Assembly (NCBI GenBank): GCA_014905635.1
Contig: JABVCE010000021.1
Span: 186,001-250,000, forward strand
DNA: 64,000 nt
DNA from: Scenedesmus sp. PABB004
Taxonomy: Eukaryota
Direction: 5' to 3'
Positions 22,022 to 62,584 of this stretch are shown here, piece after piece. Under the pieces are notes generated by a model. It searched no databases. It saw only the letters and a list, made by a program, of their open reading frames with translations, and had not been told where the DNA came from. The position numbers were made by a program, and so were the translations under genes. Each line of letters starts with the position of its first letter. Within the stretch, counting starts at the first letter, position 1.

Positions 22022-22082
<61 letters not shown>

Positions 22083-25162: not shown

Positions 25163-28100
25163 ATGAGCCGGCGGCGCATCAACGTCGCGGTGGTGGGGGA
25201 CCGGGGGTCGGGCAAGACCAGCCTCATCACCTCCTCCGCGCACGAGGTCTTCAGCGAGCGGCCCGTGCCGGTGCTGCCGCCCACGCGCTTCCCCGCCGAC
25301 TTTGCGGTCGTGTCGGAGCCGGTGGACGTCGTCGCGTACGACACCTCCTCCCGGCCCGAGGACGCGACGGCGGTCGACGAGACGATCAAGGCCGCCGACG
25401 TGATCATCGTCTGCTTCGACGCCCAGCGCCGCGCCACGCTGCAGCGCCTGCGCAGCGACTGGCTGCCGCGCGTGAGCCACCTGCGCCCCGCCGCGCCCGT
25501 CATCGTCGCGTGCTGCAAGGACGACACCGAGGACACGCTGCCGACAGACCAGATCCGCGAGGCGCGCGCCCGCCGCGCCCCCCACGCCCGCCGCGCCCTG
25601 CCACGCCCGCCGCCGCCGCAGCGCCCGCGCCGCGCCCCACGCTGCCCCCTCACACAACACACACGCACACACACACAACACACACACGCGCCCCACAGTT
25701 CATGGAGGCGCTGATCCGTGAGTTCCCGGTCATCGAGGTCTCCATCCGCACGAGCGCCAAGAAGCTGCGCAGCGTGCTCGACGTCTTCTACCAGGCGCGG
25801 CGCGCGCGACGCGCGCGCTGCGCGTGCTGCGCGCGTGCTGCGCTGTGCTGCGCGCGGCACGCCCAGTGTGCTGCGCGCGGCGCGTCCAGCGCATGCCCGG
25901 CGCGCGGCCAGCACGCGTCCGGCACGCGGCCAGCCACGCGGCCAGCCGCGCGCCGGACGTGTGCTGGCCGCGCGCGGCGCGCGCGCGCGGCGCGTGCTGG
26001 GCGCATGCTGGGCGCGTGCGTCTGCGCGCGTCATGGCCGTGCGGCGGCGCCGCGCGCCCCCGGCCAACGCCCCCCCCCCCCTCCCTCCCTCCCCCCCCCC
26101 CCCCCCACGCCCCCGCCCCACGGCCCCTGCGCGCTGTGCAGGGCATCAAGACCGTGCTCTACCCCAAGGCCCCGCTGCTGGACGCCACCACGGGCCGCCT
26201 GACCACGCCGTGCGTCAAGGCGCTGCTGCGCATCTTCCTCATGTGTGACCACGACGGGGTGCGCTGCACGCCGCGACGCGCCGGCGCCGCTAGCACCAGC
26301 CGACGCGCACCGCACCGCACCACGCCCGCGCCGCCGCCGGGGGCGGCGGCGCGGCGGCACAGCCGCGAGCGCCGCGGGTGGCGGGGCCACGGGGCGGAGG
26401 GGCGCCGGCGCGCGCAGCGGGAGGGCGCGCGGCGCGGCGTCGGGGCGGCGGGGCGCGAGCGCTGCGCGCCCGCGCGCGCGCCGCCGACGGCCGCGCCGCC
26501 CCGCCGCACGCGTGCGTGCGCGCGTGCGTGCGCCAGGACGGCGCGCTGAACGACGAGGAGCTCAACGCGTTCCAGTTCCTCTGCTTCGGCCAGCCCCTCA
26601 CGCCCGACGAGCTCGGCAGCGTGCGGCAGATGGTCGCGGAGCGCATGGCCGACGGCCTCAACGACGCGGGTGCGCCCCGCGCGGCAGCGCGCGGGGCCCG
26701 CGCCGCGCCGTTGCCCCCGCCCGCCGCCGCCGCCACCGCGCCCCGGCCGCCCACCCAACCCGCCCACGCACCACGCCCACCCACCCCGCCCACCCACACA
26801 CCACACGCCCACGCCCATGCCCACGCCCACGCCCACGCCCACGCACCCACGCCCCCCCCCCCCCACACACACACACGCACACAAACACGCCCACGCCCAC
26901 GCCCACCCACCCACGCCCACCCACCCACCCCGCCCAGGCCTGCTCTTTCCGGGGTTCATGTACCTCCACACCCTCTTCCTCACGCGCGGCCGCCTGGAGA
27001 GCACGTGGACGGTGCTCAAGCTCTTTGGTGCGGGACGCGCGGCGCGGCGGCGCGGCGCGGCGGGGCGCGGCGCGAGGGAGGGCGGGAGGGCGGCGGGTCG
27101 GCGGCGGGCGGGCGGGTTGGCGAGCAGGCGTGCGGGCGGCGGGCGGCGAGCGGCCGCGCCGCGCCGCGCGCAGGCTACAACGAGCAGCTGCGCATCTCCG
27201 ACGCCGCGCTCGACCGCCTCCCGCGCGCGGGCCCCGGCGCCGGCGGCGGCGGCGCCGACGGCCACGCGGCGCCGCACGGCGGCGCCGGCGCCGCCGACGC
27301 GGGCGGCGGCGGCGCCGGCGCTGGCGGCGCCGGCGGCGGCGGCGGCTCTGGCAGCGGCGGCGCGGGCAGCGTGCTGGAGCTGAGCGAGCAGGCGGTGCTG
27401 TACCTGGGTCACGTGTTTGACATCTACGACTCCTCCCGCACCGGCGTGCTGAGCGCGATGGACCTGGAGCACATGTTCAACCGCGCGCCCGTGCCCATCT
27501 ACCAGGTGGGGCGTGTGTGTGGGCGTGCGTGTGCGTGCGTGTGTGTGTATTGGGGGGGGGGTGGGTGTGGGGCACGGGCTGCGGGGCGGCGTGGCCGGCC
27601 AGGCGGCGGCGGCGCCCACGGCTGGCTGATGCCCCCCGCCCGTGCCTCCCCGCCCCGCGCGGGCGCAGGTCGAGTGCTGGACGCGCGTGCTCGTCGCGGG
27701 CGGCGGCGGCGGCACGCCCGGCGGCGCGCCCGGGTGCGGCGGGCTGACCAAGGAGGGGTTCATCACGCGCTGGCGCGCGACCGCGCTCGAGGCGCCACGC
27801 ATCGCGTTTGAGCAGGCGCGCCTGCTGCGGCCGCCGCTGGCTGCGGCGGCAGCGCGGGAGGGGGGGGGGGGCTGCGCCGCCACCAACCCTCGACTCAATC
27901 CCTCCCTCCCCCCCCCCCCCCCCTCCCAGATGCTCTACCTGGGCATGGGCGGCCGCTGCGGCGAGGACGCGGCGCGCCTGTTCAGCGTGCGCCCGCGGCG
28001 GCGCCGCGGCGACCGCAAGACGGGCGAGCTCGCCGAGCGCACCACGCTCGTGGCGGGGCTCTTTGGCGGGCTGGCGGTGGGCAAGAGCAGCCTCATCAAA

Positions 28101-29389
28101 GTGAGTGTGCGACCCGCTTGAGCGGGGCTTGGGGAAGCGCGCGGCGGCGGCCGCAGCGCCAGCGCGGGCTCAGGCCGCTGGCGCCGCGCCCCGAGCCTGC
28201 GCGCGCCGCGCCGCGCCGCGGCCCCGCGCGCGCAGGCGCTGGCGGGCCGGCACTACGGCGAGGCGCTGCACGGCCTGCTGACCGCGGCGGGGTCGACCAG
28301 CAGCCTGGTGGAGGGCGCGCCGCGCACGCTCGTCATCCATGAGGTGCGGCCGGCCGCAGAGCCAAGCGGCCCGCTGCGTGGCGGCGGCGCGGCCGGCCGC
28401 CCGCCCGCCCGCCGGACGCCCACGGCCCACGGCCCGCGCGGCCGCCCCGCGCTGCGGCAGGCGAGCGCCGCGGCGAGCGCGGACGACCCCACGCTCGACC
28501 TGTCGGGCCTGGACGTCGCGGGCGTGATGTTTGACAGCGCCGAGCCGAGCAGCTTTGACGCGGCGCTCGCGCTGCTCGTCGGCCTCAGCGGCCGCGCCGG
28601 CGACAGCCTGCCGTTTGTGCTCATCGCGTCAAAGGACGACCTCGGCATGTCCAGCGTGCGCGCGCGCGGCGTGGCGATTGGCGCGGCGGCGGCGGCGGCG
28701 ACCGCGGCGGCCGCGGCTGCGGCGGGCGCGCGGGCGGCGGGCTGGGGCGCGAGGGGCGGGCGCGCGCGGGCGGCCGGCGACGCGGCGCGCGCCTCCGCCG
28801 TGCCGCCGCGCAGGAGCTGGAGGCGCGCGTGCACGCGGCGTGCCGCGAGCTGTGCCTGCCGCTGCCCATCCCCGTCTCCGTGCTGCTGGGCAGCCTCGGC
28901 CACCAGCCCGACGCCGCGGGCGCGGCGGCCGCCGCCGCCGCGGCCGCCGCTGCGGGCGGCGCGGGCGCCGCCGCGCACGCGGCTGCCGCAGCCGCGGCGG
29001 CAGCGGCGGCGGCGTCCGCGAGCGGCGGCAGCAGCAACGTGTTTGTCTCGCTGCTGCTCGCGGCGCTGCACCCGGAGGGCCACGTCCCCGACACGCCCGC
29101 ACGCAAGGTGCGCGGGCGGACGCGCCGCCCGCGCTCCCGCGCCGCGCGGCGCCGCCTGCCTGCCCTTCCCTCCGACCCGCCCCCGCCCCGCCCCGCGCGT
29201 GCGCAGGCGCGCCGGAGAAACATGCGGCGCCTGCTGCTGGCCGGCGGCGTGGCGGTCGCGGGGCTGGCGGGCGCCTATGCAGCCCACCGCCTCTACACCT
29301 CGCTCGGCGGCGCGCGCGGCGCCGGCAGCGCCGGCAGCGCCACCGGCGGCGGCAGCGCCACCGGCGGCGGCGGCGGCGGCAAGCAGTGA
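25163..29389 (+). CDS. MIRO1: Mitochondrial Rho GTPase Miro
   Basis: 12 exons: 25163-25561, 25699-25794, 26142-26258, 26537-26669, 26938-27027, 27174-27505, 27669-27815, 27930-28100, 28236-28343, 28461-28655, 28814-29107, 29207-29389. GDRGSGKTSL, DTSS, CKDD; EF-hands DHDGDGALNDEEL and DSSRTGVLSAMDL; RGRLESTWTVL; second GTPase GKSSL/SKDDL; C-terminal TM anchor. Confidence 0.95.
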
Positions 29390-30593: not shown

Positions 30594-30698
30594 TGACGAT
30601 TGGGGCGCTGTTTATTATTGGAGTGCTGGTTGGGCGCGCGGCGCGCCCGCGGCGCCGCGCCCGCGGCGCGCCCGCGGCGCCGCGCCCGCGGCGCGCGC

Positions 30699-37496: not shown

Positions 37497-40148
37497 ATGG
37501 CCGCGCTTGTAGCGCCAGCTGCGACCGCGGCGGCGGCCGCCGCCCGGCGCAGCGCGCGCCCGGGCGCGGCGCGGCCGCGCTTCCACCTCGCCCCGCGCAG
37601 CGGCTGGGTGAGCCGGGGGGCCGCGCTGCGCTGGGTGCGGCGCCCCAGGCGCCCGCGCCCGCGCGCGCGCAGCTGCTCATTCGCGCGCCGCCGCAGATCA
37701 ACGACCCCAACGGCCCGCTGCGCGCCCCGGACGGCACCTACCACCTGTTCTATCAGCACGTCCCCGACAGCGCCGCGTGGGACTGGGGGCTGGTGTGGGG
37801 CCACGCGACGTCCCGCGACCTCGTGACCTGGCGGCACCTCCCGCCCGCGCTCGCGCCGACGCCGGGCGGCCCCGACCGCGACGGCTGCTTCTCGGGCTGC
37901 GCCACGGTCGACACGGACGGCACGCCCGCGCTGCTGTACACGGGCGTGCGTCGCGCGCGGCCGCGCGCGCGCACTGGCGGCGCCGGCGGCGGCGCGCGGG
38001 CCCGTGCAGGGCGCGCGTGCGCGCGCCCGACAGCCCGCCCGCCGCGCAGGTGGTGCGCAAGGCAGCGCACGAGGTCGAGCCCGGCGTCAGCCCGCAGCAC
38101 GAGGCGCAGCTCATCGCCGTCGCGGTAAACCCGGGTGCGCGGCGCTTGCAGGACCGCGCGCGCATGCGCTGCCCGCTCCGCGCCAAGGACCGCCCCGTCC
38201 TGCAAGCGCTCCTGCAGCCTGTGCGCGCGCGTCCTGCAAGCTGTGCCCATCCCACTCCCGCACCCACCCCCGCGCCGCCGCCACCCCCGCAGGCGACCCG
38301 GAGCTGCGCGAGTGGGTCAAGCTGCCCGGCAGCCTGCTGCCGCCGCCGCCGCCCGGCATGGAGCCTCTGGCTGGCTTGCGCGACCCGTTCCTGCTCGAGC
38401 GCCCCACGCCCGGCAGCCCCTGGTGGATGCTCATGGTCGGCGCGGGCCTGCGCGGCGAGGGCGGCGCGCGCGGCACCGCGCTCGTGTACCGCAGCGCCAC
38501 CCTCACCTCGGGTGCGGCGCGGCGGGCGCGCGCGCGGCGCGCGGCGGCGGGCGCACGGCGGCGCGCGCGCCGCCGCCCCGTCGTCCGCCGCGCCCGCGCG
38601 GGCGCCGACGCCGTCGACCGCCCCCACGCCCGCGCGCGCGCGCGCGCAGGCTGGGAGCTCGTCGGCCCGCTGTGTGAGAGCGGCGACAGCACGATGTGGG
38701 AGTGCCCGACGCTGTGCCGCCTCACGTCGGCGGCGTCGCCGGACGTGTCGCGGCACCTGCTGACGGTGAGCCCCGACTACTGCGTGAACCCTGTGACCTA
38801 CTGGCTCGGAGACTATGTAGCGGGGCGGGGCACGTTTGACCTGGCGTCCGCGGACGGGCCGCACCCTCTTGACCTCGGCGATACGATCTACGCGCCCAAC
38901 ACGCTCACCGACGAGCACGTGCGCGCGCGGCGGCGCGGCGCAGGGGGAGGGGCGGGGCGGGGAGGCGAGGGGAGGGGGCACGCAGCGGCGCCGCTGGCAG
39001 CGCCCGAGCCCAGCGCGCGCGCGCGCGCCCCGCGGCGCCGCAGGGCCGCACGCTGCTGTGGGCGTGGCAGCAGGAGCGCGCAGAGGCGCGCCCACGCGGC
39101 GCCTACGCGAGCTCCTGCAACCTCTGCGTGCCGCGCGTGCTGAGCCTCAGCGCCGACGGCGCCCGCCTGCTCCAGGCGCCGCTGCCCGAGCTCGCAGCGC
39201 TGCGCGAGGCGGGCGGCGCGTGGCACGCCGGCGCCGCGGCGGGCGGCGCCGCGCCGCTGGTGCTCGCGCCGGGGCGGCCCGTCGACATTGGCGGCGCGCC
39301 CGGGAGCGCGCTGGACGTGGAGCTCGCGCTCGAGCGCGGCGGCGCCGACGCGGTCGTGCTGCTGCTGCAGCCCTTTGACGACGCGGGCGTCAACGGCGCC
39401 GCCGGCGCGGGCGTCGCGTTCAGCTGGGCGACCAACACGCTGCAGGCGCGCCCGGGCGCGGGCGCCGCGGCGGCCGGCGGCCCCCGCGCGCGCGCCCGCG
39501 CTCGGCGGGGCCGTCGGGCCCGGCCCGACGCTCGATCCTCCTGCGCCGCCGCCGCCCGCAGGTCATCCACAGCACCGACCTCGCCGCGCTCGAGGCCGCG
39601 GCGGCCAGCCCCGTGGCGCGCCCGCGCCACCGCAAGCTGCCCGTGCCCGGGCCGGAGGAGGCCGTGGCAGAGGCGGCCGCCGCGGCGTCGTCGGGCGCGC
39701 CGCGACGCGTCGGCGGCGTGCTGCGCGGCCGCGCCGCGCAGGGCGCGAGCGCGGGGGGCGGCGGGCTGCGCCTGCGCGTGCTGATCGACGGCTCCAGCGT
39801 GGAGGTGTTTGCCTGCAGCGGCGAGGCACTCGTGACGCGCGTGTATCGGGGCGACGAGCCCCCCGCCGCGCCCGCCGGCGGCGACGGCGGCGGCGCGCGG
39901 CGCGCGGCCGTGCTCGCCGGGCGCGACAGCGGCACGGCCGCCGGCGACGCCGCTGGCGGCGGCGCGGCGCGCTGCCCCAGGGCGGCGACGGGCGGCTGCA
40001 GCTGGTCGCGTTTGGCGCCGGCGCGGCGCGGCTCGTGAGCGGGTCGGCTTGGCGCATGGGCAGCATGTTCGACGCGCCGGCGGACGCGCCGGCGGCGCTG
40101 CCCGTGCAGGGCCTGCGCGTGGAGCAGGTGGCCGGGCGGGCGGCGTGA
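37497..40148 (+). CDS. Glycoside hydrolase family 32 (invertase / beta-fructofuranosidase)
   Basis: [52 protein letters not shown]-terminal [10 protein letters not shown]...TRVY. All three catalytic motifs present; no signal peptide seen. Needs a 1-nt correction near 39964. Confidence 0.92.
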
Positions 40149-43227: not shown

Positions 43228-46200
43228 ATGGCGGGCCTCGGCGCGAGCGGCGACGCCGGCCGCGCGCTCACGCCGCGCGCGCTCGCGGCGGGGCTGGCCG
43301 TGGGCGCGCTGCTCTGCTTTTCAAACACCTACTTCGGGCTCCAGACCGGCTGGGTGACGATGGGCAGCCTGCAGAGCGCGATCCTGGGTGCGCCGCGGCG
43401 CGCGCGAGGCGCTCGTTCGGCCGGGGGCGCGCGCGCTCGGCGCGGCGCGGCCGGCGCGTGCTCCCGCCGCGCCGCCGCCGCCACCGCCACCGCCGCCGCA
43501 CCCACTGGCAGGCTACGGCCTGTTCCGGGGCCTGTCCGCCGCCGGCCTGTGCGCCGCGCCGCTGGGCGTGGGCGAGAACGTTATCGTGCAGACGACCGCC
43601 GTCGCGACGGCCACGATGCCGCTCGCGGCCGGCCTCGTGGGCATCGTCCCCGCGCTGGGCCTGCTCTCGCCGGCCGACAACCCGCCGGACGGCCCCGTCG
43701 TGCTCGGCGGTGCGGCGCTGCTCGGCTGGTGCGCGGCGCTGGCGTTTTTTGGCGTGTTCGTCGCGGTGCCGCTGCGCGCGCAGACGATCCTCCGGGAGCG
43801 CCTCCGCTTCCCCTCGGGCGCGGCGACCGCGAGCGTGATTCGCACGCTGCACGGCCTGCCGCCGCGCGGCGCGGCGCGGCGGCGCCGCGGCGGCGGCGCC
43901 GGTGGCGGCGCGAGCGTCGCCGACCCCGAGGCGCCGCTGGCGGGCGCCGAGGGCGGCGACGACGGCGCGCCGGCGCCCGGCAAGCCGCCCGCGGCGCAGG
44001 CGCTGCGGGACGCCGAGGCGCGGCAGCGCCAGTGGGGCGTCGCGCTGCGCGTGCTGCTGGTGTGCTTTGCGGCGTCGGGCGTCTACTGCACCGTCGCGGC
44101 GTGGGTGAAGCCCCTGCGGTGCGGCGGGCTGCCGCGCGGCTGCCGCCGCGCCTCTGCCGGCCGCAGCCGCAGCTCGCCACCGCGCCGGCCGCGCCGGCCA
44201 CGCCGCCGCGCCGCGCCGCCGCACTCACACAGGGTGCTGCCGGTGTTTGACTGGATCGGCCTCCCGTCGGCAACGGCATGGGGGTGGGTTTTGCAGCCCT
44301 CGCCGGGCTATTTGGGGCAGGGCATGATCATGGGGCCGAAGACCGCATGGTCGATGGCGGCGGGGGCGGTGATCGGTGCGCGGCTCTTGACGCGGCGTGC
44401 GGCTCCGCCGCGGCGCCGCGGCCCGCGACGCGGCGCGCGGCCCCCGACGCGGCGCGCGGCTCCGGACGCGCCGCCACGGCCCTGGACGCGGCGCGCGGCC
44501 CCTCAACGCGCCGCCGCGGCCGCCCGCAGGCTGGGGCGTGCTGGGCCCGCACGCGCGCGCGGCGGGCTGGGCGCCGGGGCCGATCAAGAGCATTGAGACC
44601 GGCGCGGCGGGCTGGCTGATGTGGCTCGGCCTCGCGCTGCTCCTGGGCGACTGCCTGTCCGAGCTCGCCCTCCTGGCGGGCGGCGCGCTGCTGGCGAGGG
44701 CGCGGCGCGCCCGGCGGGAGCGGCGTGGCGGCGGCGGCGGGGGCGGCGGCGCGTACGCGCGGCTGGACGCTGCCGCCGCGCAGGCGGCCGACGCGGAGCA
44801 GGGCGGCGCCGCGCTCGGCGGGCCGCGGGGGTCGCTGCTGGAGCTCAGCCCCGCGGGCAGCAGCAGCGGGCTCAGCGTGAGCGGCGCGGCGCCCGGCGGC
44901 GCCGCGCCGCCGCAGCCGCCCGCCTGGGGCGCCGGCGGCAGCGACAGCAGCAGCGACGACGGCGACGACAGCGACGGCGCCGCCAGCGACGGCAGCAGCT
45001 GGGACGACGCCGGCGAGCCGCGCGCCGGCGGCGGCGGCGGCCCCGGCGAGGGCAGCTGGCTGCTCTCGGCCCGCTTCTGGGCGCCAGGGCTCGCCGCGAG
45101 CACCGCGCTGTGCACCGCCATCCTGGCGCCACTACTGGGGCTGCCGCTGCACGAGCCGCTCGTCGCCGTGGCAGTCGCGCTGCTCGTGGCCCTGCTGGCG
45201 GTGCGCGCGCTCGGCCAGACCGACCTGAACCCTGTCTCGGGCGTCGGCAAGATCAGCCAGCTCGTGTTCGCGGTCATCTCGCCGGGGGCGGTCGTGCCCA
45301 ACCTGGTCGCCGGCGCCATCGCCGAGGCGGGCGCGCAGCAGGCCGGCGACCTCATGCAGGCGCGGCGGTGGGGCGGCGCGGCGGGCGGCGTCCTGCCTGC
45401 CGGGAGCGGGGACGCGGGGGCGAGCGCCGGGCCCGCCGCCGCGCGCCGCCGCATCCGCCGCCGCCGGTCAACGGCCGCCCGCCGCCCGCCTGCCGCCCGC
45501 CTGCCGCCCGCGCCACGCAGGACTTCAAGACGGCGCACCTGCTCGGCGTCGCGCCCGGCGACCAGCTGCTCGCGATGCTGATCGGCTCCGCCGCGTCGGT
45601 GCCGCTCTCGGTCGGCGCGTTCAAGCTTTACACGTCGGCCTGGGAGGTCCCCGGCCCCGTGCTGCCCGCGCCCACGGCAGCCATCTGGCTAGACATGGCG
45701 CGGCTGGTGCGAATGGGCCTAGGCCAAGGCGGGCCCTTGGCCGCGCGGCGCGGCGCGACGCGGCGCGACGCGGCGCTGCCGCGCACGCCGCGCAACCCCG
45801 CCGCGCGCCCCGCAGGTCAACGGCGGCAAGCTGCCGGAGCGCGTCGCGCCGTTCTGCGTCGGCGCCGCGGCGCTCGCGGCGGCGCTGCCGCCGCTGCAGC
45901 ACGTGCTGCGCGCCGCGCAGCGCCGCGCCGCGCGCGCCGGCGGCGGCGGCGGCGCCGCGCGGAAGGTGAGCGACGACGGCGCGCCCGCGCGCGGCGCGGG
46001 CGGCGGCGGCGCGGTCGCGGCCGCCGCGCGCCGGCTGGCGGCGACGTGGCGCGGGCGCAGCGCGCTGGACTGGGCGCTCGCGCTGCTGCCCAGCGGCGTC
46101 GGCGTCGCGGTGGGCATGTATTTGGAGGCCCGCTGGACGGTGCCCCGCCTGATCGGTTCGGTGGTGGACCAGGCGAGCCCGCGCGCGCGCGCGGTGCTGC

Positions 46201-46401
46201 GGCGGACAGCGCCCGCACGGCACGCGAGGGGCGCGCGGCCTCCTGCGATCACGCGCCGCCGCGCCGCACCGCGCGCAGGCGTGGCTCGCGCTGTCGCCGG
46301 AGAGCCACGCCGCGCTCATGATGGTCACGGCGAGCGGCCTGGTGCTGGGCGAGGGCTGCGCGTCGGTCGTCACCGCGCTCGCGCGCGCGGCGCTGAGCTG
46401 A
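43228..46401 (+). CDS. OPT superfamily oligopeptide / metal-chelate transporter (YSL-like)
   Basis: LTPRALAAGLAVGALLCFSNTYFGLQTGWVTMGSL, ENVIVQT, LRFPSGAATA, GQGMIMG, GQTDLNPVSGVGKISQL, AGDLMQ|DFKTAHL; many TM segments; 7 exons. Confidence 0.92.
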
Positions 46402-48421: not shown

Positions 48422-50743
48422 TCACGGCGCGGCAAATTTGACGTCCAGGGGCGACGGCTTGGCCTTGCCCTCTGCGCCCGGGCGGGCGGCCGGCGGCGCC
48501 GGCAGCGGCGTGAGCGCAGCGCGGCGTGAGCGCAGCGCGGCATGAGCGCAGCGCGGCATGAGCGCAGCGCAGCGTCGCCGCCGCCGCACCCAGGCAGGGC
48601 GCGCAGGCGGCGACGGCGTCCATGGCGCCCGTGAGGATGCTCTTCTCAATCTTGGTCAGGCGCGCCGCGACCTTCTGGCGCGGCGTGGCGGTGGGGTCGG
48701 CCAGGATCTCGAGGTCGCGCGCCATGCTGTGCCTGCCGGGCGGCAGCGGCGGCGGCGGTGCGGCGGCGGCCGTTGCGGCGTGGCGGCGGCCACGCAGGCC
48801 TTGGCACGCGCGGGCCCGCGCCGCGCCGGCGGGCGCAGCAGCATGGCGCGCACTTGTAGCCCGCCAGGCGCTGCTGCAGGTGGCCCACGAGCGCGCACGC
48901 CGCGGTCTGCTCCAGCTCCGGATCAAACACTGCGCACTCGGCGCTGAACTCAACCTGCGGGGCCGGGGCCGGCGAGCGGGGCGCGGCGTCAGGGTGCGCT
49001 CCGCCACTGCCGCCACCGCCGCAGACGCCGCCATGCCCCCCCCCCCCCGCCCGCCGGCGCGTGCGCGCCTTGTCGAGCTGCTCGTGGCTGGTCGCAAACG
49101 CGAGCCGCAGGTACGGCAGCAGCAGCGGCGGCAGCGGCGCGCCGCGCGTGAGGTCAAACGTTTGCATCGTAGAAAGATTCTCGTCCTGGGCGGGGCGGGG
49201 CGGGACGCCTTGTGAGAGGGGGCGCGACGGAGAGGCGGCGAGCCCCAGCTACAGCGGCTGGGCCCGGGCCCGGTCGCTGCGCGCGCCGCCGCCGCCGCCG
49301 CCGCCGCCGCCCGCCGCCGCCGCCGCCACCGCCGCCCCCGCCGCCGCGTCCGCGTCCGCACCTGCAGCACGCCGCGCTTGACCTTGTACAGCGGGTCGCT
49401 CGACGGCAGCGTGACCTGCGGCAGCCGCAGCACGCGCGGGCAGAGCGGCGGCGGCGGCGGCGCGGGCCGGGTCGGCGCGGCGCGACGGGCGGCGAGCGCG
49501 TGCGGCGCGCGACACGGGCGCAGCGGGCGGCGAGCGCGTGCGGCGCGCGCGGCGTGGTGCGGCGTGGTGTGCGGTGGCCACGCGCCGTGAGCTGGAGCTT
49601 GTCGTAGGGGTTTGCCTCGTCCACGATGCCGTAGTTGAGCAGCAGCCGGCTGTTGGGCTGCGGGCCGCACCACGCGTACAGCGCCTCGCCTGCGCGCACC
49701 GCGGGCCAGCGCGGGACAGGGGGGCGGGGCGCGAGCGCAGGGGAAGGGGGAGGCGGGCGGGCGGGCGGGTGCGTGGGGGGAGGAGCGACGGCGGAGGAGC
49801 CCCAGAGTGGAGCCCGCCGGCGCAGGCGGCGCCGCGCGGCCCGCGGCCGCGCGGCGGGCGCGCGCGCGTGCTGCCGGCCGCCGCACCCTGCTTGTAGTCG
49901 CGGTCGACCACTAGCTCCACCGCCTGGCGCTCGGGGTTGTGCTTGAAGACCGCCTTGCAGGTGGAGCTGTAGCTCAGCAGCGGCGGGCCCATCGGCACCA
50001 GCGCAAAGCGCCGCGCCGGCGGCACGCCCTGCAGGTGCACGATCGACGCCTGCACTGCCGCAAACGCCTGCGCCGCGCGCGAGAGGGCACGGGCGCGGAC
50101 GCGGGCAGGGCCCCCGGCACTGCGTCGGCGCCGCCGGGCCCTCGCATCGGCGGGGCGGGCGCCGCCGCAGCCCGCGCGCACGCGCGCCCCGCCGACGCCC
50201 CGCCGACGCCCCATTCCGTCCCGGCTTCCCGGCGTCCCGGCGCCCCAGGCGCCCATTCCGTCCCGGCGTCCCGGCGCCCCGGCGTCCCGGGGCGTCCCCC
50301 GCGCACCTGCTTGAAGCGCACAAAGGGGAAGGCCTCGGTGGGGATGTCAAAGGGGTACCTGCGACGCGCACAGCAGGCGGCGGCGGCAGCGGCGCGGGGC
50401 CGTCGCTGCGCCGCCGCAGCCCCGGAGCAGAGCCGGTGACGCGCGCCGAGCCGCTGCGCCGCTGAACAGCCCCTGCGCCCTGGAGGGGCCCGGCCGCCCC
50501 TCGCCGCCCCTCCCCGCTGCCGCTGCGCACCGGTTGTAGAGCGAGCCAGCCATGTACCACACGCCGTCGAGCTCCCTGTACTCGCGCTCAATGCCCGCCA
50601 GCCGCGCGCGCACCGCCGACACCACGGGGCTGCCCTGCGGGGGCCCGGGGCGGCGCGGCGCGCGGGCGCGGCGCGCGGGCGTCGCGCGCCGCGCCGCCGC
50701 CGCCGGCGCTGCGCTGCCGCCGCGGCTGCCGCCGCCGCCGGAC

Positions 50744-50774
<31 letters not shown>

Positions 50775-51920
50775 GCGCTGCCGCCGCCGCCGCGCCTGCA
50801 GCAGGTCTGTGAGCTCCTCGTCGCTCCAGAGCAGCGGGCTCTCCACCGCCTGCACGCCGCGGCCGCGCTGGCGGTCGAGCTCCTTGATGTACGACCACCA
50901 GAAGCTCTCCCGCCCCACCTGCGCGCCGCGGCACCGCGAGCGGCGGCACCGCGAGCGACGCGCGCGGCGGCGCTCGGCCACGCCCCAACACGCCCGCTGC
51001 GCCCCTGGCGCGTGCCCCAACCCCTGCGCCCTGCTGCGACACTTAAAACCCTAAACCCTGCTGCCCCGCCCTGCTGCCCTAAACCCCACCTTTTTCTCAT
51101 ACATCATGTAGAGCGTGAGGCAGGCGAGCTCGCTGAGCTTGCCCGCGGTCAGCATGTCGGCGAGGCCCTCGCTCTCAAACACGCGGTCCAGCGTCACAAC
51201 CTGGGGCCGCGCGGCGCGGTGGGCGGTGAGCAGCGCGCCGCATCGCGGGCTCTGGGCCACCTGGCCCCCTCCCTCTGCCAGCGCGCGCCGCCGCGCTGCC
51301 CCGCGCCCGCCCGCCGCGCGCACCAGGCGGTCCGGCACCGAGATGGCGACGTCCCCCGCCGACAGCGCCGCCGCCGCGACCGTCACGTCCAGCGGGCGGC
51401 CTGTGCGGCGCGGCGGCGGCACGCGGGAGGGGGTGGGCGTGGGGGGCGGGTGCGCCGGCGGGGCGGCGGCGCCGCCGCCGCGGCGCGCGCGCGCACCCGC
51501 GGCGGGGACGTCGAGCGTCGCCAGCGTAACCTTGTCCTGGGGCGCGCCGTTGTCGGCCAGCCAGGTCAGCAGGCTCGGCGCGTCGGCCTTGTGCGTGTCG
51601 GCGCTGTGCTCCGCGCTCACCGCGCGGCGCGGCGGCGCCGCGCGGCGCGCCGGCACGCCCGCGGCGCCCGAGCGCACGCGCACGCGCATGCCCCCGACCT
51701 GCCGCGGCGGTGCGCGCGGTGTGAGGCGGTAGGGGCCCGCGCTGGCGCGCGGTGAGGCGGCAGGGGCCCGCGCTGGCTGCGCCGCGCGGGCGCCGCGCCC
51801 GCCGCCGCTGCTCGCCGCCCGCCAGCGCCGCGCGGCAGCGCCGAAGCTGCAGCGGCGCCGGCGTCGCTGAAGCCGGCCGTCAGCAGCTCGCACCTGGCCC
51901 GCCGGGGCCGCGAAGGCCAT
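48422..51920 (-). CDS. Plastid SET-domain Rubisco-LSMT-like protein (At5g14260/SAFE1-like)
   Basis: Transit peptide; KLSELACLTLYMMYEKK, ELDRQRGRG...ESPLLWS, YPFDIPTEAF, RRFALVPMGPPLL, WCGPQPNSRLLLNYGIVDEANPYD, LLPYLRL. About 15 exons. Orthology recalled from memory. Confidence 0.88.
48505..48570. repeat. Intronic 16-bp tandem repeat GCGGCRTGAGCGCAGC x4
   Basis: Visible in the last intron (48589-48472) of the SET gene. Confidence 0.85.
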
Positions 51921-54811: not shown

Positions 54812-57800
54812 TCAGTGCGCCGCGCTGCTGGTGGAGGGCCCCGTGCGCGCGTAGACGTACATGTAGCCCAGGCCCAGTGGCGGCGCCGCGCTCGCTGCGA
54901 CCTTCTCGTCGTTGAAGATCACCCACCGGCCGCCCTGCACGGCGGCGGCGGCGCGGTAGCGTGGCGCGGCCGCAGCGGCGGCGAGCGCGGGCTGGGCGCG
55001 GGCTGGGCGCGGGCTGGGCGCGGGCTGGGCGCGGGCTGGGCGCGGACGGGGCGCGGGCGGCGGCGGCGGCAGCCCGGGCGAGCGCAGGCAGGGCCGGCGG
55101 CGGCGGCGGGTGGTGGCGGTGGTGGTGGTGGTGGTGGCGGTGGTGGTGGTGGCGGGTCGCGCCTTGAGCACGTGGGCGACGTAGTGCCCGCACGCGGTGT
55201 TGGTGCCCATGTGGCTCACGATGCCCACGAGGCGGTACGTGCCGGGGCCGTCGAGCAGGCTCGGCCTGCGCGGCGGCGCGCAGCCCGTGAGCGCGACCGC
55301 GCGGGGCCGCGGCCGCCAGTGCCCGCGCGCGCGCACGCGGGCCGCGCCGCCGCGCACCGGTTGCCGCCGTCGCCGCCGGGCGCGGCGCCGCCGTCGGCCG
55401 CGGCTGCGCCGCCTGCGCCGCCGCCCTGCGCGGCCGCGATGGCCGCGGGCAGGTCGTCCATGTGGCTAAACAGCCAGTCGGCCGCGCGCTCCACGCTGCC
55501 GCCCGTCGCGGACAGCGCGGCCGCCGCGGCGTCGGGCTCAAAGCCCATCGCCGTCAGCATTGACACCTGCGCGGCGGACGGCGACCGCGGCGGCGGCGAC
55601 CGCGGGCACTGCGCGTGGGCGGGGAGCCTCCAGCGAGCGGCGGCGGCGCGCTCCCTCCCCTCTCCGTTGCGCCGCCGCGCGCCGCCGCCGCCGCGGGCGC
55701 GCGCCTTTTCGGGGTCGAACTGCTGCGCCGCCGCCGCCGCCGCCTGCTGCTGCTCGCCGCCGCCGGCGCCGGGCGTGGGCAGCGGGTCGTTGAACCCAGG
55801 GTCCTGCATGTGCCCCAGAACCCACTCCATGGCCGCCTCGGCGTTGGAGTTGCCCGTGGCGAGCGCTGCACGACCACAGGTGCGGGCGGGAAGGAGGTGA
55901 GGGGGGTGAGGGGGTGAGGGGGTGTGGAGCGCGAGGCGCGCTCCGCGTGTCGGCCGGCGGCCGCCGCGCAGCGCCCGGCGCGCGCGCGCGCGGCCGCCCG
56001 GGGGTGGGCCCTCACCCGCGCGCTTGCTGCCGTTCTCGGAAAAGCCCATCGAGACCAGCTGCGCCACGATGGTCGCGTCCGGCTCTGGCGCCGCCGCGGG
56101 CGCCGCGGGCGCGGCGGCGGCGCCGCCCGCCGGCGCCTCCTCGGGCTGCAGCTGCTCCCCCGGCGCGGGGCCTGCGCCGCGGGCGCGGCGCGGCGACCGC
56201 GCTCGGCGCGCGGCGCGCGCACGGCGCAGCCCGCGCGCGCTGTGCCGCGACACGCCCGGCGACCGCACCCGTGCTGCGCAGGGCCTCCAGGTTGAGCTCC
56301 AGCGGCATCGGCACCTCCACCTCCAGCTTCTTGGGCGACCAGTCCTCTGCGGCGGCGCCGCGCGGCGCGCGCGTCAGCCAGCGCCGCGCCCCGCAGCGCG
56401 GTTCGAAGGCTCCCGGGGGCTCGCAGCCCCGCCGCCGCCGCCGCCGCCGCCGCCGGGGGCCGCACCCACCGGCGACATAGTAGCGCTTCAGCGACACCAC
56501 CAGCACGGGCGGGAAGGTCGCGAAGCGCGTGCGCCGGCTCGCCTCGCCCTTGCGCCCCGCCGCCGCGGAGTGATAGTCGGGCAGGACCTGCGCGGCGCGG
56601 CACGTGGCGCGGCACGTGGGGCGGCACGTGGCGCGGCACGTGGGGCGGCACGTGGGGCGGCGGGGGCGGCGCATGGGGCGGTGCGTGCGGCGCGGCGATG
56701 AGCGCCGAGCAACGAGCGAAGCGGGGCGGCAGCGGCGGCGGCACGCGCGCCGCACCTCGGCCGCCGCAAAGCGGCTGAGGCAGGCCTCAAAGGGAATCAT
56801 GGGCAGCACCGGCGTCTCGCCGCCGCCGCCGCCGCTGGCGCCGCTGGCACCGCCGCCGCCGCTGGCGCCGCCGCCCGCGCCGCCCGCGCCGGGCTCGCCC
56901 GGCAGCACCACGTCCGCTGCGCCGTCGGCGCCGCCGTCGAGGCTGCTGCCGGCGCCGATGTAGGCGCTGGCCTGCCGCGGCGGCCGCGGCGGCGGCACGA
57001 GCTGAACTAGCGGCGCGCGCCGCGGGGGCGCGCGCCAGGCCCGCCCCTCTACAGCCGCTGCCCTGCGCGCCCCTGGCGCCGAAGCCGCCGCCGCACCTGC
57101 TCCTCCTTCAGCCTCGCGCGCTTGGCCTCGCGCTCGCGGTATGCCGCCACCGCCTCGGCGTTGGTCGCCGCCTCGACAGGGATGTGCAGCGCCAGGCTGC
57201 TCGCGAGCGTGCGCCTGGCAGCGGCGGCGGCGGCGCGGCGCGGCGCTCGCAACGCGGGCGGGCCACGGCCCGCGCGCGCCGCGGCGGCGCGCACCTGTAG
57301 CTGACCGCACCGGTGGCCATGCACTGCGTGCGGTCCTCGAGCTGAAAGTTGAACACCGCCGGCGTCAGCGCCTGCGCGGCACGGCGCGGGAGGGGGGGGG
57401 GGGGGGCCTTGGGCCGGCCGGCGTGCAGCCGCGCAGCGGCGGCGGCGCGAGGGCCGCCAGGCGCGTGCGCGCGCCAGCCGCCTGCCGCCGCCGCGTGCCG
57501 CTGCCCCACCTGCCCGTCCTCGATGCCCAGCCGCGCCGCGCCGGCGTGCTCCGCGCGCGAGAGCAGCTGCAGCAGGTGCCCAAGGTACTCCGCGGCGTCC
57601 TGCCAGGGCGCGGCGGCGTGAGGCGGGCACGTGCGCGGCGCGGGCACACAGCGAGCCGCGGCGTGCAATTGGCCGCCGGCGCGCAGCGCGGCGCGGCGGC
57701 CGTGGGACGGCGCGCCGCGACACCTGCTGCCGGCCCGACGAGAACTCTGGGTGGCCGCGCCCCACCAGCGCCTTGAACGCCGCCGGCCGCACGCTGTTGG

Positions 57801-60342
57801 CCTCCTGCGCCGCTGCCTCGGCGCCGCCGCCGCCGGCGCGCGCGGCGTCGGGCGCGCCGGGCGCGCCCGCCGCGGCCGCGGCCGCCGCGTCGCCGGCGCC
57901 GCCGGGTGCCGTGGCGGCGGCGGCGCCGTCCGCGTCCATCAGCTGCGGCGCGTCGCCGCCCGGCGGCGCCGCCGGCGGCGGCTTGCCGGTGCGGCCGTCG
58001 ACGAGCGCGACGCCGAGCTTGGCGAGCTGGGCCGGCAGGTCGCCGCTTGCGTCGGCGGGGGCCGACGCAAAGATGGCCGGCGCGCGCGCCGCGTAGCGCT
58101 CCGCAAACTCGGGCAGTGCAAACAGCACCTGCGCGGCGGGCGGGCGGCGGGGCGCAGGCGCGGCGGCGGGGTTGACGCGCGGCGGCGGGGTGCAGGCGCC
58201 GTGCACAGCGCGCAACAAAGAGGCACGCACAGCACGCACAGCACAGCACGGCGCGCGCCTGGAGGACGCTGTTCATGTAGCAGCTGTTGCCGAGGTTGAC
58301 CAGCCCCACGTGCCCCGGGCCGGACAGCGGCGCGAGCGCCGCGCCCGCCTCGGTGAGGGCGCTGAACTCGTAGGCAACGTTCATGTCGATCTCCAGCTCG
58401 GCCATGGTCTTGGCGCTCTTCTCCATCTGCGTGCGTGGCCGCCCGGGCGCGGCGAGCGGGCGGCGGCGCGCGTGCGGCGGCGGCGGCGGGCGGGCGCGCG
58501 GGTCGGCGGCGCGCCGTGGCTGCTGCCGCGCCCCGCCCACGCGTGGCCGAGCGAGAGCCCGTCCCAGCGCCGCCGCCCGCCTCCTCCCACGCCCACACCC
58601 ACACCCACACACCCACCCACAGCCCCAGCCCACCTGCATCATGTTGATGCCCCAGTGCGCGAGGTGCGCGGCCAGGCCCGGGTCCAGCACCATGTCGTTC
58701 TCATCCGGCGCGTAGCTGTACACGTCCGCGCCTGGCCTCACAGCGCACCGCGCCAGACAGACGCGCGGCGGCGGCGGCGGCGGCGGCGGCGGTACGGGGT
58801 CGGCAGCGGGGCGCGGGCGGCGGCGGCGGCGGCAGCGCCGGCGGCGGCTCACCCGCGGGCGTGATGGTTCCGAGCTTGACCACGAGCGGGTACTTGCAGC
58901 CGGTGGCCTCGTAGTGGCGCAGCGCGCTGCCGTTGCCGCCGCTGCCGTCGGCGTACTGCGCGCGGCAGTGTGGATGCGCGACGCGACGCGCGCTCGGCGG
59001 CCGGCGCCCTGGGCTGCCAGGGTCGGCACGCGCCGCGCGCGTGGCCTGCCGCCGCGGCCCCCCGCCGCCGCCGCTGCCGCCGCCGCCGCGCACACACCTG
59101 GCGGCCTGAGCCGATGTGCCCGGTGGAGAGGTTGAGCCAGAGATTCTCTTTGACACCCGTCTCATCGCAGGCCCAGTCGGCGGGGTGGGGGCTGATCTTG
59201 CGCCCCGTGTCGAGCTGCGGCAGCGCGGCCGCGTACCTGCGACGAGCGGGCGCGCGCGGCGCCGCGGGGGTGGGGCGGCGCGCGCGCGAGCGGGCGGGCG
59301 GGGCGGGCGCGGGCGGCGCGACCGGCGCGCACTTGCTGACGCGGCGCTCCTCCTCCCACGCCGCCACGGCCTCCTGCTTGGTGGCGCCCTCGTGCGCCTG
59401 CGGGCGGCGCGGCGCGGGCGGCAGGGCGTGCAGGCACGTTTGTGAGAGGGGGTCGGCTGGCGCGGCGGGCGAGCGGCGCGCCGCGTCGCGTGCGGCGCGG
59501 CGCGACGCGCGCCTGGATGGCGGTGATGGTGTTCAGCACCAGCTCGGGCAGCTCCGGGCACGGCAGCGGCACCACGGCGCGCTGCCCGGGCGCCGTCACG
59601 ACCACGAGCGCGGCGGCCTTGTCCAGGGTGTACTGCTTGGCCGGCTCCAGCGCAAAGCCGCCCTCGGCGCCCAGCGCCAGCTTGGTCGGCCGCGCCGCGG
59701 CGGCCTCGGCGGCCGCCGCCGCCGCGGCGCGCTCGGCCTCGGGGATGGGCACCTGCGCGGCGCGGCGGCGGCGGCGGCCGCGGCGCCGTCGGCATGGCGG
59801 CCGGCTGCGGCGGGACGTGGCCGGTCATCGCGCGCCGCGCGCGGGCCCGCACCCGCGTCCACAGCAGGTGCAGGTAGAGCGTGTTGCCCGTCTTGCCGTG
59901 GTCCAGGTCCACGAAGTCGGCGCCGAAGCCCTGCCGGCGGCGGCGGTTGGCGCGGTTGAGCAGCGCGCGCCGCGGCCGCTGCTCCGCCGCCGCCGCGCGG
60001 CGCCGGCGCGCGCTGCGACCCCCAGCAGCCACGTGATCCGCTGCATGCGTCTTCCAGCGCGGATCGGGGGCGAGCCGCGCCGCTGGGCAGCGCGCGCTGG
60101 CCGCGAGCGGGCGAGGGCGCGCGGCGCGGCATGCGCGGGCGCTGCGCGCCCACGCGTGGCACTGGCGCCCCCGCGGCCGCCAGGCTCGCCTGGTAGCTCT
60201 TGAGGTTGATGAACAGCCCGCCCGGGCTCTCCGGCGTGTCGAACGAGTACATGCACTCGTCCTTGAAGACGCGGTCGAAGTGCCCAGGCGGCTGCAGGCC
60301 GCGCATGCCCGCGCGCACGGCGGCGAGCACGCCCTCGTCCAT
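54812..60342 (-). CDS. UBP14: Ubiquitin-specific protease UBP14/USP5 (isopeptidase T)
   Basis: [20 protein letters not shown], Zn[19 protein letters not shown] and [12 protein letters not shown], Cys box [32 protein letters not shown], two UBA domains (SMGF, AMGF), His box [13 protein letters not shown] and WVIFNDEKV. About 18 exons. Confidence 0.96.
54985..55045. repeat. Intronic 11-bp repeat (GGGCTGGGCGC)x5 with G-quadruplex potential
   Basis: About ten GGG runs with 2-3 nt spacers on the + strand, in the last UBP14 intron. Confidence 0.8.
56597..56660. repeat. Intronic 12-bp repeat GCGGCACGTGG(C/G) x5
   Basis: CACGTG at 56601, 56613, 56625, 56637 and 56649. Confidence 0.9.
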
Positions 60343-60704
60343 CGCGCCGGGCGCTGCTGGTGTCGCCGCCGCGGGGCGTGGCGGCGCGCCGCTGCTGCTG
60401 CGCGGCCGCTGCTGCTGTCGCCGCCGCGGGGCGTGGCGCTGCGCCGCTGCTGCTGCTGGAGGGGTGTGGGACGGGCGACCGAGCGTTGGGGGTGGGACGA
60501 GGCGCCGGCGGCAGCGTCACGCGCTGGCGACCTGAACCGCACGGCGACTGTTCGACTGCCGACCGCTCAACCGCTCGCGCCACGCTCCCAAGTTGGATGC
60601 CCCTCTCTACTCTCTCTGACCGACCCCCCAACTCTTCAGCGCGCGCGCACGCCCGGGGCGTGCAGCGCGGCGCGGCAACAACGACAACAAGCTGGCACGC
60701 CCCC

Positions 60705-61716
60705 TCAGCCCGAGCCCATCGGCCGCCGCTGCACCGCGGCCGCGCGCGGCGGGGCGGCCGCCGCCGCGCGCAACGGGGCGGGCGCCGCTTTGGTGGGCGC
60801 GGGGGCCGCCTTGGCCGGTGCTGGTGCCGGCGCAGGCGCCGGCGCGGGCGCCGGCGCGGGCGCCGCCTTCGCCGCGGGCGCCGGCTTGGGCGCCGGCGCG
60901 GGCGCCTTGGCCGGCGCTGGTGCCGGCGCGGGCGCGGGCGCGGGCGCGGGCGCCGGGGTGGGCGCGGGCGCCGGCGGCGGCAGGACGACGCCTGTGCTGA
61001 TGGGGCGGCCGTAGAGGGCGTTGAACGTTGACCCTGGCTGCCGGCTGTTGACCGCATCGTAGCTCGGCATGTGCAGGGGCAGGCCGGCGGGGCTGCGGCG
61101 GCGCGGCCGGCGGCGCCGCCGGGGCGGAGCGCGGCCGGGCAGGGCTCAGCCGCTCGCCTGCCGCCGGCCGCCGGCCAGGCGGCGCCGCGCGGCGCCTGCG
61201 CTGCGCTCGGCTGGGGCCGCCCGCGCGCGCCCCTCTGAGCCCAGAGTCGGTGAGCGCACCTCACAGCCGGCAGGGAGTTGGTGAGGACGTACGTCAGCGC
61301 GTCATACACCGCGCGCTGCCCCCCGGCCGCGAGGTGGCGGCCGTCCGGCTGCATCGCCGCGCTCTGCGGCGCAGGCGGCGGCGCGCGCGGCGTCCGTCGG
61401 GCCGGTTCCCGCTCGGCCTCGCGCCTCTGAAAAAAAAAGAGTCGGGCCGCCCGCTGGCGCCCGCTGCTGCGCCCGCTGGCGCCCGGCGCGCCCGCCGCGG
61501 GCCGCGCCTGCCAGCCTTTGATGCCGGTGATGGCGGCGAACGCGTCCACGTACGGCACGCCCGCGGCGCGCGCGACGGCCACCGCGGCGGCCGCGTACGT
61601 TTTCAGCGTCGCCAGGCTCGGCCCAGGCGCGGGGGAGCCGTCCTGCGGGGCGCGCCGCCGCGGCGGCGTGGCGCGCGCGCGCTCTCGCGCGAGCCCTCCA
61701 TCTGCCGAGCGCGCGC

Positions 61717-61761
<45 letters not shown>

Positions 61762-62584
61762 CAGCGCCGCCTTGCGCGTCCAGGTCTTGTCGACGACCGG
61801 CGGCGGCGTGATGATGACGACGTTGGCCACGCCCCGCGCGCGCAGCTTGCGCACCATGGCGGCCAGGTTGGCCTTGAACTCCTCGAGCGGCACGTGCAGG
61901 TAGCCGCTGCGCCGCGCGTGTGGCGGCGAGGGTTCAGGGCTCAGGCTTGGGGTTCAGGGCTCAGGCTTGGAAGCCGCCGCGGGCGGCGCGCTCGGCCGGC
62001 GCCCGCCGCGGCCCGCGCGTCGCGCACCCCATGCCGGCGGGGTTGAGCGCGTCGTTCGCGCCGAAGCAGAGCGTGACGAGCTTGATGCGCCCCGCGCCAA
62101 AGGCGCCCAGGAACTCGTCAAGCACAAACAACCCCATGCGGCTGCGGCGGGCGGGCGGGTGCACGGCGGCTCGCACAGCGGTCCGCGACGCGCGCGGCGG
62201 CGCGGCGGCGGGGGGGCCCCCGTGCGCGCGGCGCGCCGCGCCTGGTGTAGCCGCCGTAGCCCCGGTTCACCACGTCGGCCTTGCGCCGGTACGCCTGCGA
62301 GAGCATGAGACCCCAGCCGTCCTCAAAGAACGACTGCCTGCGCGCCAGCGGGCGGGCGGCGGGCGGCGGGCGCCCGCGTCGCGCCCCGTGCCGGCGTGCC
62401 GCCGTCTCACGGCGGCGCGCGCCGCCGGCGCGCGCGCCGCTCACTCGGTGATGCTGTCGCCGACGAGCACCACCATGGGCCGGAACAGCCCCTGCGCCGC
62501 GGCCGGCGCGGGGCCGGCCACCAGCAGCGCGGCGGCGCACAGCGCGACCGCCAGCGCCGCGCCGCGGTGGGCGCGGCGCCGCAT
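60705..62584 (-). CDS. Secreted SGNH/GDSL esterase (IAH1-like) with a Pro/Ala-rich tail
   Basis: Signal peptide; VLVGDSITE, DVVNRGYGGY, FGANDA, HVPLEEFKANL, IITPPP, DGRHL; C-terminal (AP)n tract at about 60760-60980. Confidence 0.9.

Follow-up and report, generated by a model that had tools for sequence, protein, structure and literature searches.

The window and its GC donors

The window analysed here, a stretch of 64,000 nucleotides from the genome of Scenedesmus sp. PABB004 (assembly GCA_014905635.1, contig JABVCE010000021.1, positions 186,001 to 250,000), holds genes in which a number of introns appear to begin with GC instead of GT at the 5′ splice site (the donor) and to end with AG at the acceptor; these are referred to as GC-AG introns. 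A table in PMC12571836 gives the genome of this strain as 39.8 Mb with 78.5% GC and 7,092 genes, and it was found that the GC content was 77-84% in all sixteen 4-kb bins of the window. The dinucleotide GC made up 21.9% of the window and GT 3.4%. Because GC dinucleotides are so common, GC is found beside almost any exon end, and therefore every claimed GC donor required an independent test.

A Pfam search of stop-to-stop reading frames located, on the plus strand, a Miro gene (Ras, Roc and EF_assoc_2 domains), the N- and C-terminal domains of a GH32 protein and an OPT gene, and on the minus strand a UBP14/USP5-like gene (zf-UBP_var, UCH and UBA domains) and a clathrin-adaptor sigma gene. The names Miro, GH32, OPT and UBP14 had been given to these genes in an earlier reading of the DNA made without database searches (the sequence-only reading), and they agree with the Pfam results. 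That reading had also named a SET gene and an esterase gene and had listed 17 GC donors, and GC was present at the expected base in all 17 cases. The nearest named relative in protein searches was Tetradesmus obliquus (89% identity on Miro exon 1), which has a 57% GC genome and proteins about 88% identical to those of the window alga.

The donors were tested by protein conservation, using a purpose-written spliced protein-to-DNA aligner in which GT and GC donors had equal cost and acceptors were restricted to AG. This yielded an orthologue-validated set of 48 introns in four genes (Miro, UBP14, SET and the esterase). The list of 17 held to the exact base at 14 sites, 13 by spliced orthologue alignment and one by a Pfam junction (3 in Miro, 5 in UBP14, 3 in SET, 2 in the esterase and 1 in OPT), whereas GH32 39446, OPT 46173 and esterase 61770 had ab initio support only. 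The confirmed introns are given below, where identifiers beginning with P denote the proteins used in the comparisons.

25562..25698, plus strand: Miro intron 1, GC-AG, 137 nt, phase 0; gapless versus P0001 and P0002; no GT inside
25795..26141, plus strand: Miro intron 2, GC-AG, 347 nt, phase 0; a GT-only model deletes 4 conserved residues
27816..27929, plus strand: Miro intron 7, GC-AG, 114 nt, phase 0; gapless versus P0001; no GT inside
45360..45520, plus strand: OPT GC-AG intron, 161 nt, phase 0; exact Pfam junction
48955..49068, minus strand: SET GC-AG intron, 114 nt, phase 0; orthologue alignments and any-donor control
49416..49585, minus strand: SET GC-AG intron, 170 nt, phase 0; the sole validated GC donor without exonic AG (ACG before GC)
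50635..50795, minus strand: SET (setd3-like) GC-AG intron, 161 nt, phase 0; required for the 100% match to P0147; P0151, P0152 and P0153 concur
54935..55162, minus strand: UBP14 GC-AG intron, 228 nt, phase 0; P0030 and P0033
55567..55704, minus strand: UBP14 GC-AG intron, 138 nt, phase 0; P0030 and P0033; no frame-keeping GT alternative
58129..58258, minus strand: UBP14 GC-AG intron in the Cys box, 130 nt, phase 0; P0030 and P0033
59398..59512, minus strand: UBP14 GC-AG intron, 115 nt, phase 0; P0030; frame-keeping GT 6 nt downstream
59931..60189, minus strand: UBP14 GC-AG intron, 259 nt, phase 0; P0030
61364..61507, minus strand: esterase GC-AG intron, 144 nt, phase 0; P0278 and P0264 gapless
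62142..62241, minus strand: GDSL-type esterase GC-AG intron, 100 nt, phase 2; spliced homologue alignment

The T. obliquus orthologues P0001 (Miro), P0030 (UBP14) and P0153 (SET), all gene predictions, were collinear and gapless over 11 of the GC junctions. Entries that are apparently transcript-derived were gapless over GC junctions as well: P0033 and P0152, so judged by their source names (P0033 being the open reading frame of a transcript-assembly record), and P0002, which is probably transcript-derived because its 327 amino acids are encoded by a contig of 1,277 bases, which leaves no room for the introns. Over all 13 orthologue-validated GC junctions, orthologous proteins, some of them apparently of transcript origin, were collinear.

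Two controls bear on the claim of the sequence-only reading that conserved protein motifs are restored only with GC donors. When all 16 possible donor dinucleotides were given equal cost, the 11 sites in Miro, UBP14 and SET all kept GC at the same base. When only GT donors were permitted, all eight alignments dropped by 66-195 score units, and each GC site gave way either to an insertion or deletion of 2-24 residues within a conserved block or to an intron read as coding sequence. Both outcomes are in line with that claim. No GT was found on the coding strand of the introns 25562-25698, 27816-27929 and 61770-61643, as had been noted, and the intron 61507-61364 also lacks GT on that strand. The acceptor was AG in all 13 validated GC introns, for which the aligner was restricted to AG although the junctions were gapless, and 8 of the 13 would shift the reading frame of the coding sequence if retained. 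Thus, by sequence comparison, the observation of GC-AG introns in this window is confirmed.

The Miro gene has 11 introns, 3 of them GC, a count that includes a GT intron (28344-28460) placed by eye; the alignment to P0001 gives 10 introns and that to P0002 gives 5. Intron 7 of Miro, if retained, would be in frame and free of stops, and a C-rich tract lies ahead of its AG. As a separate observation, the coding strand of the Miro introns contains long CA-repeat, poly-C and CCCA/CGCCCA-type repeats (25640-25690, 26070-26110, 26790-26900 and 27900-27925). The P0001 prediction (744 aa) has a short internal repeat where the window has the GT intron 28344-28460, which may be a gene-model error in P0001.

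For the SET gene, a search with one exon returned P0147, "setd3 [Scenedesmus sp. PABB004]", at 100% identity, and its whole length of 481 aa was reproduced letter for letter by the window sequence spliced with the three GC-AG introns. The gene has 13 introns, and P0147, P0151, P0152 and P0153 all place the 3 GC donors at 50795, 49585 and 49068. Going by its sequence, all three GC-AG introns are already implicit in the SET protein as deposited, and the statement of the sequence-only reading that GT-only gene finders would read through such introns was therefore overstated. No protein with 100% identity came up in searches with a Miro exon or with a UBP14 exon, and it may be that the deposited annotation, with its 7,092 genes, lacks the Miro (25163-29389, plus strand) and UBP14 (54815-60348, minus strand) genes or models them wrongly.

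The UBP14 gene has 19 introns, and its 5 GC donors were placed with P0030 from T. obliquus and with P0033. Splicing at the GT 9 nt downstream of 58258 keeps the frame and would add 3 residues, and use of the GT 9 nt upstream of 55162 would remove 3 conserved residues. An additional GC intron in this gene, 58032-57802, was rejected: it was obtained with P0030 only, where it corresponds to a gap in P0030, and P0033 reads the stretch as exon.

Homologues of the esterase were weaker (85 cluster representatives with at most 66% identity over a 46-residue exon), and 16 of them were aligned. The donor at 62241 was picked by 4 of the 16, including the best-scoring P0279, whereas 2 picked GC at 62232 and none picked GT. 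The donor at 61507 was picked by two homologues, and no homologue used GT there. In the OPT gene, the Pfam OPT profile runs without a break over the junction: its position 453 matches the final residue upstream (exon end 45359) and its position 454 the initial residue downstream (exon start 45521).

Frequency and sequence context of the GC donors

As a proportion of the orthologue-validated introns, GC donors accounted for 13 of 48 (27%), relative to an average GC-AG share of about 1.2% given for plants in PMC6310983 (binomial p=1.4e-14 versus 1.2%). An ab initio gene finder was trained on the validated introns, of which it recovers 47 of 48, and run over 20 gene regions. With a handicap of 6 nats on GC it gave 24 GC donors among 134 introns, a model-dependent bound, and without a handicap it gave 58 among 157, again a bound, as this run over-calls GC in low-complexity stretches. 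The hand count of 17-18 in about 100 introns made from the sequence alone was of the right size. The distribution of GC donors was uneven, because the ab initio models of two well-conserved genes, the adaptor sigma gene (0 of 4) and a WD40 gene (0 of 8), contained none.

Five further sites, three from the list of 17 and two in a coiled-coil gene, are candidates of differing quality:

39446..39561, plus strand: GH32 candidate GC-AG intron; donor score 6.3; 3′ end from the ab initio model alone
46173..46278, plus strand: OPT candidate GC-AG intron, 106 nt; ab initio donor score 5.7
61643..61770, minus strand: esterase probable GC-AG intron, exact donor uncertain; homologues split
1..44, minus strand: possible start of a GC intron in a coiled-coil (MBO2-like) gene; CAG before GCGCGG; acceptor beyond the window edge
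1222..1409, minus strand: further ab initio candidate GC-AG intron in the coiled-coil gene, additional to the 17; cag before GCGCGT, score 6.2, survives a 9-nat penalty

At the esterase junction, the homologues divided between 61770 (GC, 1 homologue), 61767 (GC, 5) and 61794 (GT, 4), and the donor-matrix scores of these sites were 0.9, -3.0 and -9.75, respectively. The OPT donor at 46173 was kept under a 6-nat GC penalty and lost under one of 9 nats, and frame-keeping GTs lie at -33, -12, -9 and +21 nt; the GH32 donor at 39446 survived the 9-nat penalty. Pfam searches of the exons flanking GH32 39446 and OPT 46173 gave no usable profile coordinates, and sequence searches of the PDB with GH32 exon 39044-39445 and OPT exon 45816-46172 gave chance-level matches only. 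Elsewhere in the OPT gene, a 90-nt in-frame stretch rich in Gly and Ala (44694-44783, plus strand) was persistently cut by the ab initio model as a GC intron (ctg before GCGAGG); it is either an intron or low-complexity coding sequence.

The GC donors were then compared with the GT donors of the validated set. G was present at +3 in 13/13 GC and 35/35 GT donors, C at +4 in 12/13 and 24/35, and G at +5 in 13/13 and 34/35, and the median intron lengths were 138 nt (GC) and 135 nt (GT). The acceptor was AG in all 48 introns, AG alone being permitted by the aligner. U12-type donors start with A/G-TATCCTT, as given in PMC2846911, and U12-type introns were ruled out, none of the listed donors showing such a start; the GC donors resemble the GT donors of this alga (+3 G, +4 C, +5 G) and not the U12-type motif.

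The two donor classes differed on the exon side. An exonic AG preceded 12 of 13 GC donors versus 15 of 35 GT donors (Fisher p=0.0027); in other words, GC accounted for 12 of 27 donors after AG and for 1 of 21 elsewhere. Exon-side matches to the U1-complementary consensus in its textbook form averaged 2.54 for GC and 2.03 for GT donors (p=0.019), whereas intronic matches at +3 to +6 were equal (1.15 and 1.17). These differences are as expected from the suggestion of the sequence-only reading that exon-side pairing with U1 compensates for the change at +2.

It had also been noted that nearly all of the GC donors follow an exonic AG and that they are mostly in phase 0. Each of these statements held for 16 of the 17 listed sites, the site without AG being 49585 (ACG), with the phase of the three ab initio sites read from their own gene models. 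Codon usage accounts for the bias towards phase 0 and towards Gln, Lys and Glu, because A occupies the third position of only 1.6% of codons: an exonic AG is consequently available only in phase 0 (CAG, AAG, GAG) and phase 2, and a phase-1 intron is hardly able to have A at -2. None of the 9 validated phase-1 donors had an exonic AG.

The string AGGCGCG occurs 15 times on the transcribed strand in the four genes and coincides with a listed donor 11 times, two of the four other copies being located at acceptor sites; AGGTGCG was a donor in 9 of 9 cases, whereas bare GCGCG was a listed donor in 12 of 351. The count for AGGCGCG bears on the alternative that many of the GC donors are over-calls, the true sites being nearby GTs and the proteins slightly different. 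The excess of GC over GT among dinucleotides, the frame-keeping GTs within 12 nt of four listed sites, the three listed sites without homology support and the clearly excessive 58 of 157 in the unpenalised ab initio run would all be expected from over-calling. Set against this are the 11 junctions fixed by gapless orthologues with any donor allowed, where GT-only splicing adds or deletes conserved residues, the OPT donor at 45360 fixed by continuity of the Pfam profile, the four introns without any GT and the four UBP14 sites that are conserved intron positions (see below). We therefore regard over-calling on this scale as very improbable; the orthologues oppose the nearby GT alternatives, although minor use of these may occur.

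Origin of the GC donors

In the interiors of the introns, C/(C+T) was 0.87, which indicates strong mutation pressure towards C. The sequence-only reading had proposed that GC pressure turns T at +2 into C and that orthologous introns of relatives with lower GC content should be compared. The UBP14 protein of the window, spliced in silico, was aligned to 80 metagenome loci that had been retrieved with one exon; the loci in the intron comparison had 66-72% identity to the query exon, the best being 72%. At positions 53, 159, 350 and 823 of the protein, which correspond to 4 of the 5 GC introns, introns of other algal loci match in both residue and phase, and therefore these positions independently show that the UBP14 GC sites are introns. 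Of 7 comparisons at the shared positions, 6 showed a GT donor, all in loci with a GC content of 50-63% (L001 at three positions, and L004, L052 and L057 at one each), and the sole GC donor was in a 67% GC locus (L003). At individual sites, the intron with its donor at 60189 had GT in L001 and L004 and GC in L003, all in the same phase, and GT introns were found at the positions of 59512 (L057), 58258 (L001 and L052) and 55704 (L001). Conversion of old introns from T to C would predict GT at shared positions in algae of lower GC content, and the comparison, made between sequences, fits this prediction: four UBP14 introns with GC donors are GT introns in loci of 50-63% GC, as the proposed direction of change would have it.

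The metagenome contigs gave two further observations. In the 67% GC contig L003 (1-7229), all 3 introns found in the UBP14 gene are GC-AG, 68-95 nt long, and follow GAG, AAG and CAG, and the 78% GC contig L007 (1-6739) carries an intronless UBP14 copy. Other GC-rich algae in the metagenomes may have undergone the same donor shift.

The explanation that we consider the best, and which is probably correct, is that these are U2-type introns in which GC pressure has changed T to C at +2, a change tolerated after an exonic AG. On this view the introns are of the ordinary U2 spliceosomal type, the alga being a chlorophycean green alga whose genome is extremely rich in GC, and about one in five to one in four of them would have exchanged T for C at their second base. 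The 5′ splice signal would consist of (A)G at the end of the exon followed by G-Y-G-C-G in the intron, with G essentially invariant at +1, +3 and +5 and either T or C at +2. GC-biased mutation or gene conversion would drive +2 towards C, and C at +2 would be tolerated mainly where the exon ends in AG, preserving pairing with the 5′ end of U1 small nuclear RNA (snRNA). We infer the direction and the cause of the T-to-C changes, as well as the role of U1 pairing, from the comparisons described above. A high GC content of window and genome and a high share of GC-AG introns do occur together here (77-84% and 78.5% GC (the latter from the table in PMC12571836), with 13 of 48 introns), and GC pressure together with exon-side compensation explains the pattern qualitatively.

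Several points weigh against this explanation or against the sites on which it rests. The T. obliquus proteins used are gene predictions and not experimental sequences, and splicing at these exact bases is deduced from protein conservation and shared intron positions in the sequences compared. Five of the 13 validated GC introns are divisible by three in length and none of the 13 holds a stop if read through, so that retention of these introns would be invisible to the reading frame. Frame-keeping GTs lie within 12 nt of 59512 (+6), 58258 (+9), 55162 (-9) and 46173 (-12 and -9), and their use would alter the protein by just 2-4 residues. The model behind the ab initio counts was itself trained on the validated introns, and it demonstrably over-calls GC in regions of low complexity (for example, 28920-28991). 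Finally, the 12 GC donors among 27 after AG are to be compared with a neutral C share of 0.87, from which a rough calculation gives scaled selection of about 2; by this estimate, GC pressure by itself would fall short of explaining how frequent GC donors are after AG, and some relaxation of +2 recognition may contribute.

This last point bears on a second possibility, in which the reading of +2 is altered or relaxed in this lineage, through the U1 5′ end, the U6 ACAGAGA box or associated proteins, so that GC nearly equals GT and GC pressure fills the space. Such a change might be read from the 12 GC donors among 27 in the AG context, a proportion far above the approximately 1% given for other organisms in PMC6310983, from the atypical donor consensus as a whole (+3 G in 48/48, +4 C in 36/48) and from the rough mutation-selection estimate, which would put scaled selection on +2 at about 2 after AG and about 5 elsewhere, whereas the approximately 1% GC of other organisms would imply about 4-5, so that selection here would be weaker than in typical genomes. 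However, GC donors are rare outside the AG context (1 of 21), as an ordinary U1-dependent mechanism predicts, and a GTGCG-type consensus is also present in Ostreococcus lucimarinus, where PMC2483917 describes it as a GT consensus only. A scan of the window with Rfam at gathering thresholds gave 0 matches and no snRNA gene. We consider a relaxed reading unlikely, and it is likewise doubtful that the spliceosome of this lineage now hardly distinguishes U from C at +2 when the exon ends in AG, as the near-equivalence of GC and GT in that context (12 versus 15) might suggest.

A further alternative is that C at +2 is an error of assembly or consensus and that the true base is T. Extreme GC content can trouble sequencing chemistry. 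Nothing was found in favour of such errors in the present data, and they would have to target one position in at least 13 introns, preferentially after an exonic AG. The deposited protein P0147 came from the same sequence, and GC donors of this kind are known in other GC-rich algae, including 9 GC junctions of Emiliania huxleyi checked by reverse transcription PCR (RT-PCR; PMC4028052). This alternative is hardly credible, and conversion of T to C at +2 of U2-type introns under GC pressure remains the preferred explanation.

Elsewhere in the window, a gene resembling flavin amine oxidases has three successive coding segments (15300-15987, plus strand) that recur about 4.8 kb downstream (20111-20696, plus strand), with translations identical as far as compared and the third copy shorter, which points to a local segmental duplication or partial gene copy. 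Genes with SBP-box-like zinc-finger motifs, as read from the translations, flank the Miro gene (21289-23856, plus strand, and 30735-32400, minus strand). A second GDSL-type esterase gene (63114-64000, plus strand) crosses the right edge of the window and has two ab initio introns, both GT; the 670 aa cluster representative P0264 shares long identical stretches with it.

Comparison with other systems and significance

GC-AG introns account for about 1% of introns in plants, animals and fungi, and genome GC content correlates with splice-site GC content, as reported in PMC6310983 and PMC7072748. The introns described here are like the U2-type GC-AG introns of those reports and of PMC3167603 in combining a GC donor with an AG acceptor and in keeping or strengthening the exonic AG, and also in the absence of a U12-type motif and in lengths like those of GT introns. 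They differ in being about 20 times commoner (13/48 versus about 1.2%) and in having an intronic consensus of GCGCG, whereas it is GCAAGT-like elsewhere.

The closest parallels were found among other GC-rich algae. In E. huxleyi, according to PMC4028052, 135 of 241 curated junctions are GC (56%) in a 65% GC genome, and the authors attributed this to genome GC content and noted that ab initio gene models miss GC junctions. That alga resembles the present one in its GC-rich genome, large share of GC donors and retained AG acceptor, but it is a haptophyte and not a green alga, and its junctions have RT-PCR support, whereas ours were deduced by sequence comparison. Because the GC donor share of E. 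huxleyi is higher at a lower GC content (65% versus 78.5%), the rate must depend on something besides GC content. Among the pelagophytes, GC-AG shares of about 14-17% in Aureococcus anophagefferens and about 14% in Pelagomonas calceolata are given in bioRxiv 10.1101/2024.10.30.620910; these predicted shares are similar to that found here and were attributed there to high genome GC, with 0.32% in a relative of lower GC content. The pelagophytes, however, are stramenopiles with few introns per gene, in contrast to the 11-19 introns per gene here. O. lucimarinus is, like the present alga, a GC-rich chlorophyte, and its introns outside chromosome 2 have an atypical GTGCGTG donor consensus (PMC2483917), with the same GTGCG core as the GT donors of the window; it differs in being intron-poor with rigid signals, the consensus described being GT, whereas the genes here are intron-rich and vary at +2.

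A shift from GT to GC donors in GC-rich algae has thus already been published, in the E. huxleyi and pelagophyte reports cited above. In the literature searched, we found no report of an excess of GC-AG introns for Scenedesmus sp. PABB004 or another chlorophyte, although the per-species supplements of PMC6310983 and PMC7072748 may list algal rates, and the words "splice" and "intron" occur 0 times in the text of PMC12571836. What is new is the chlorophyte example, whose GC content exceeds that of every other case compared; the mechanism itself is not new.

Near 80% GC, stop codons are too rare to expose retained introns: none of the 17 listed introns contains an in-frame stop on read-through, and therefore gene finders that ignore GC donors would silently yield wrong proteins. 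The findings are accordingly useful for annotation of the PABB004 genome and for the study of splice-site evolution. They add a chlorophyte to the short list of algae in which the 5′ splice site has, by the explanation preferred here, been visibly rewritten by GC pressure. They also provide a clean context rule: C at +2 is accepted where the exon ends in AG, and the codon bias restricts such ends to phases 0 and 2. Should GT and GC indeed have become near-equivalent donors after AG in this lineage, this alga and the 57% GC T. obliquus, as rather close relatives, would constitute a natural experiment for measuring how mutation bias or biased gene conversion remodels a central signal of splicing.

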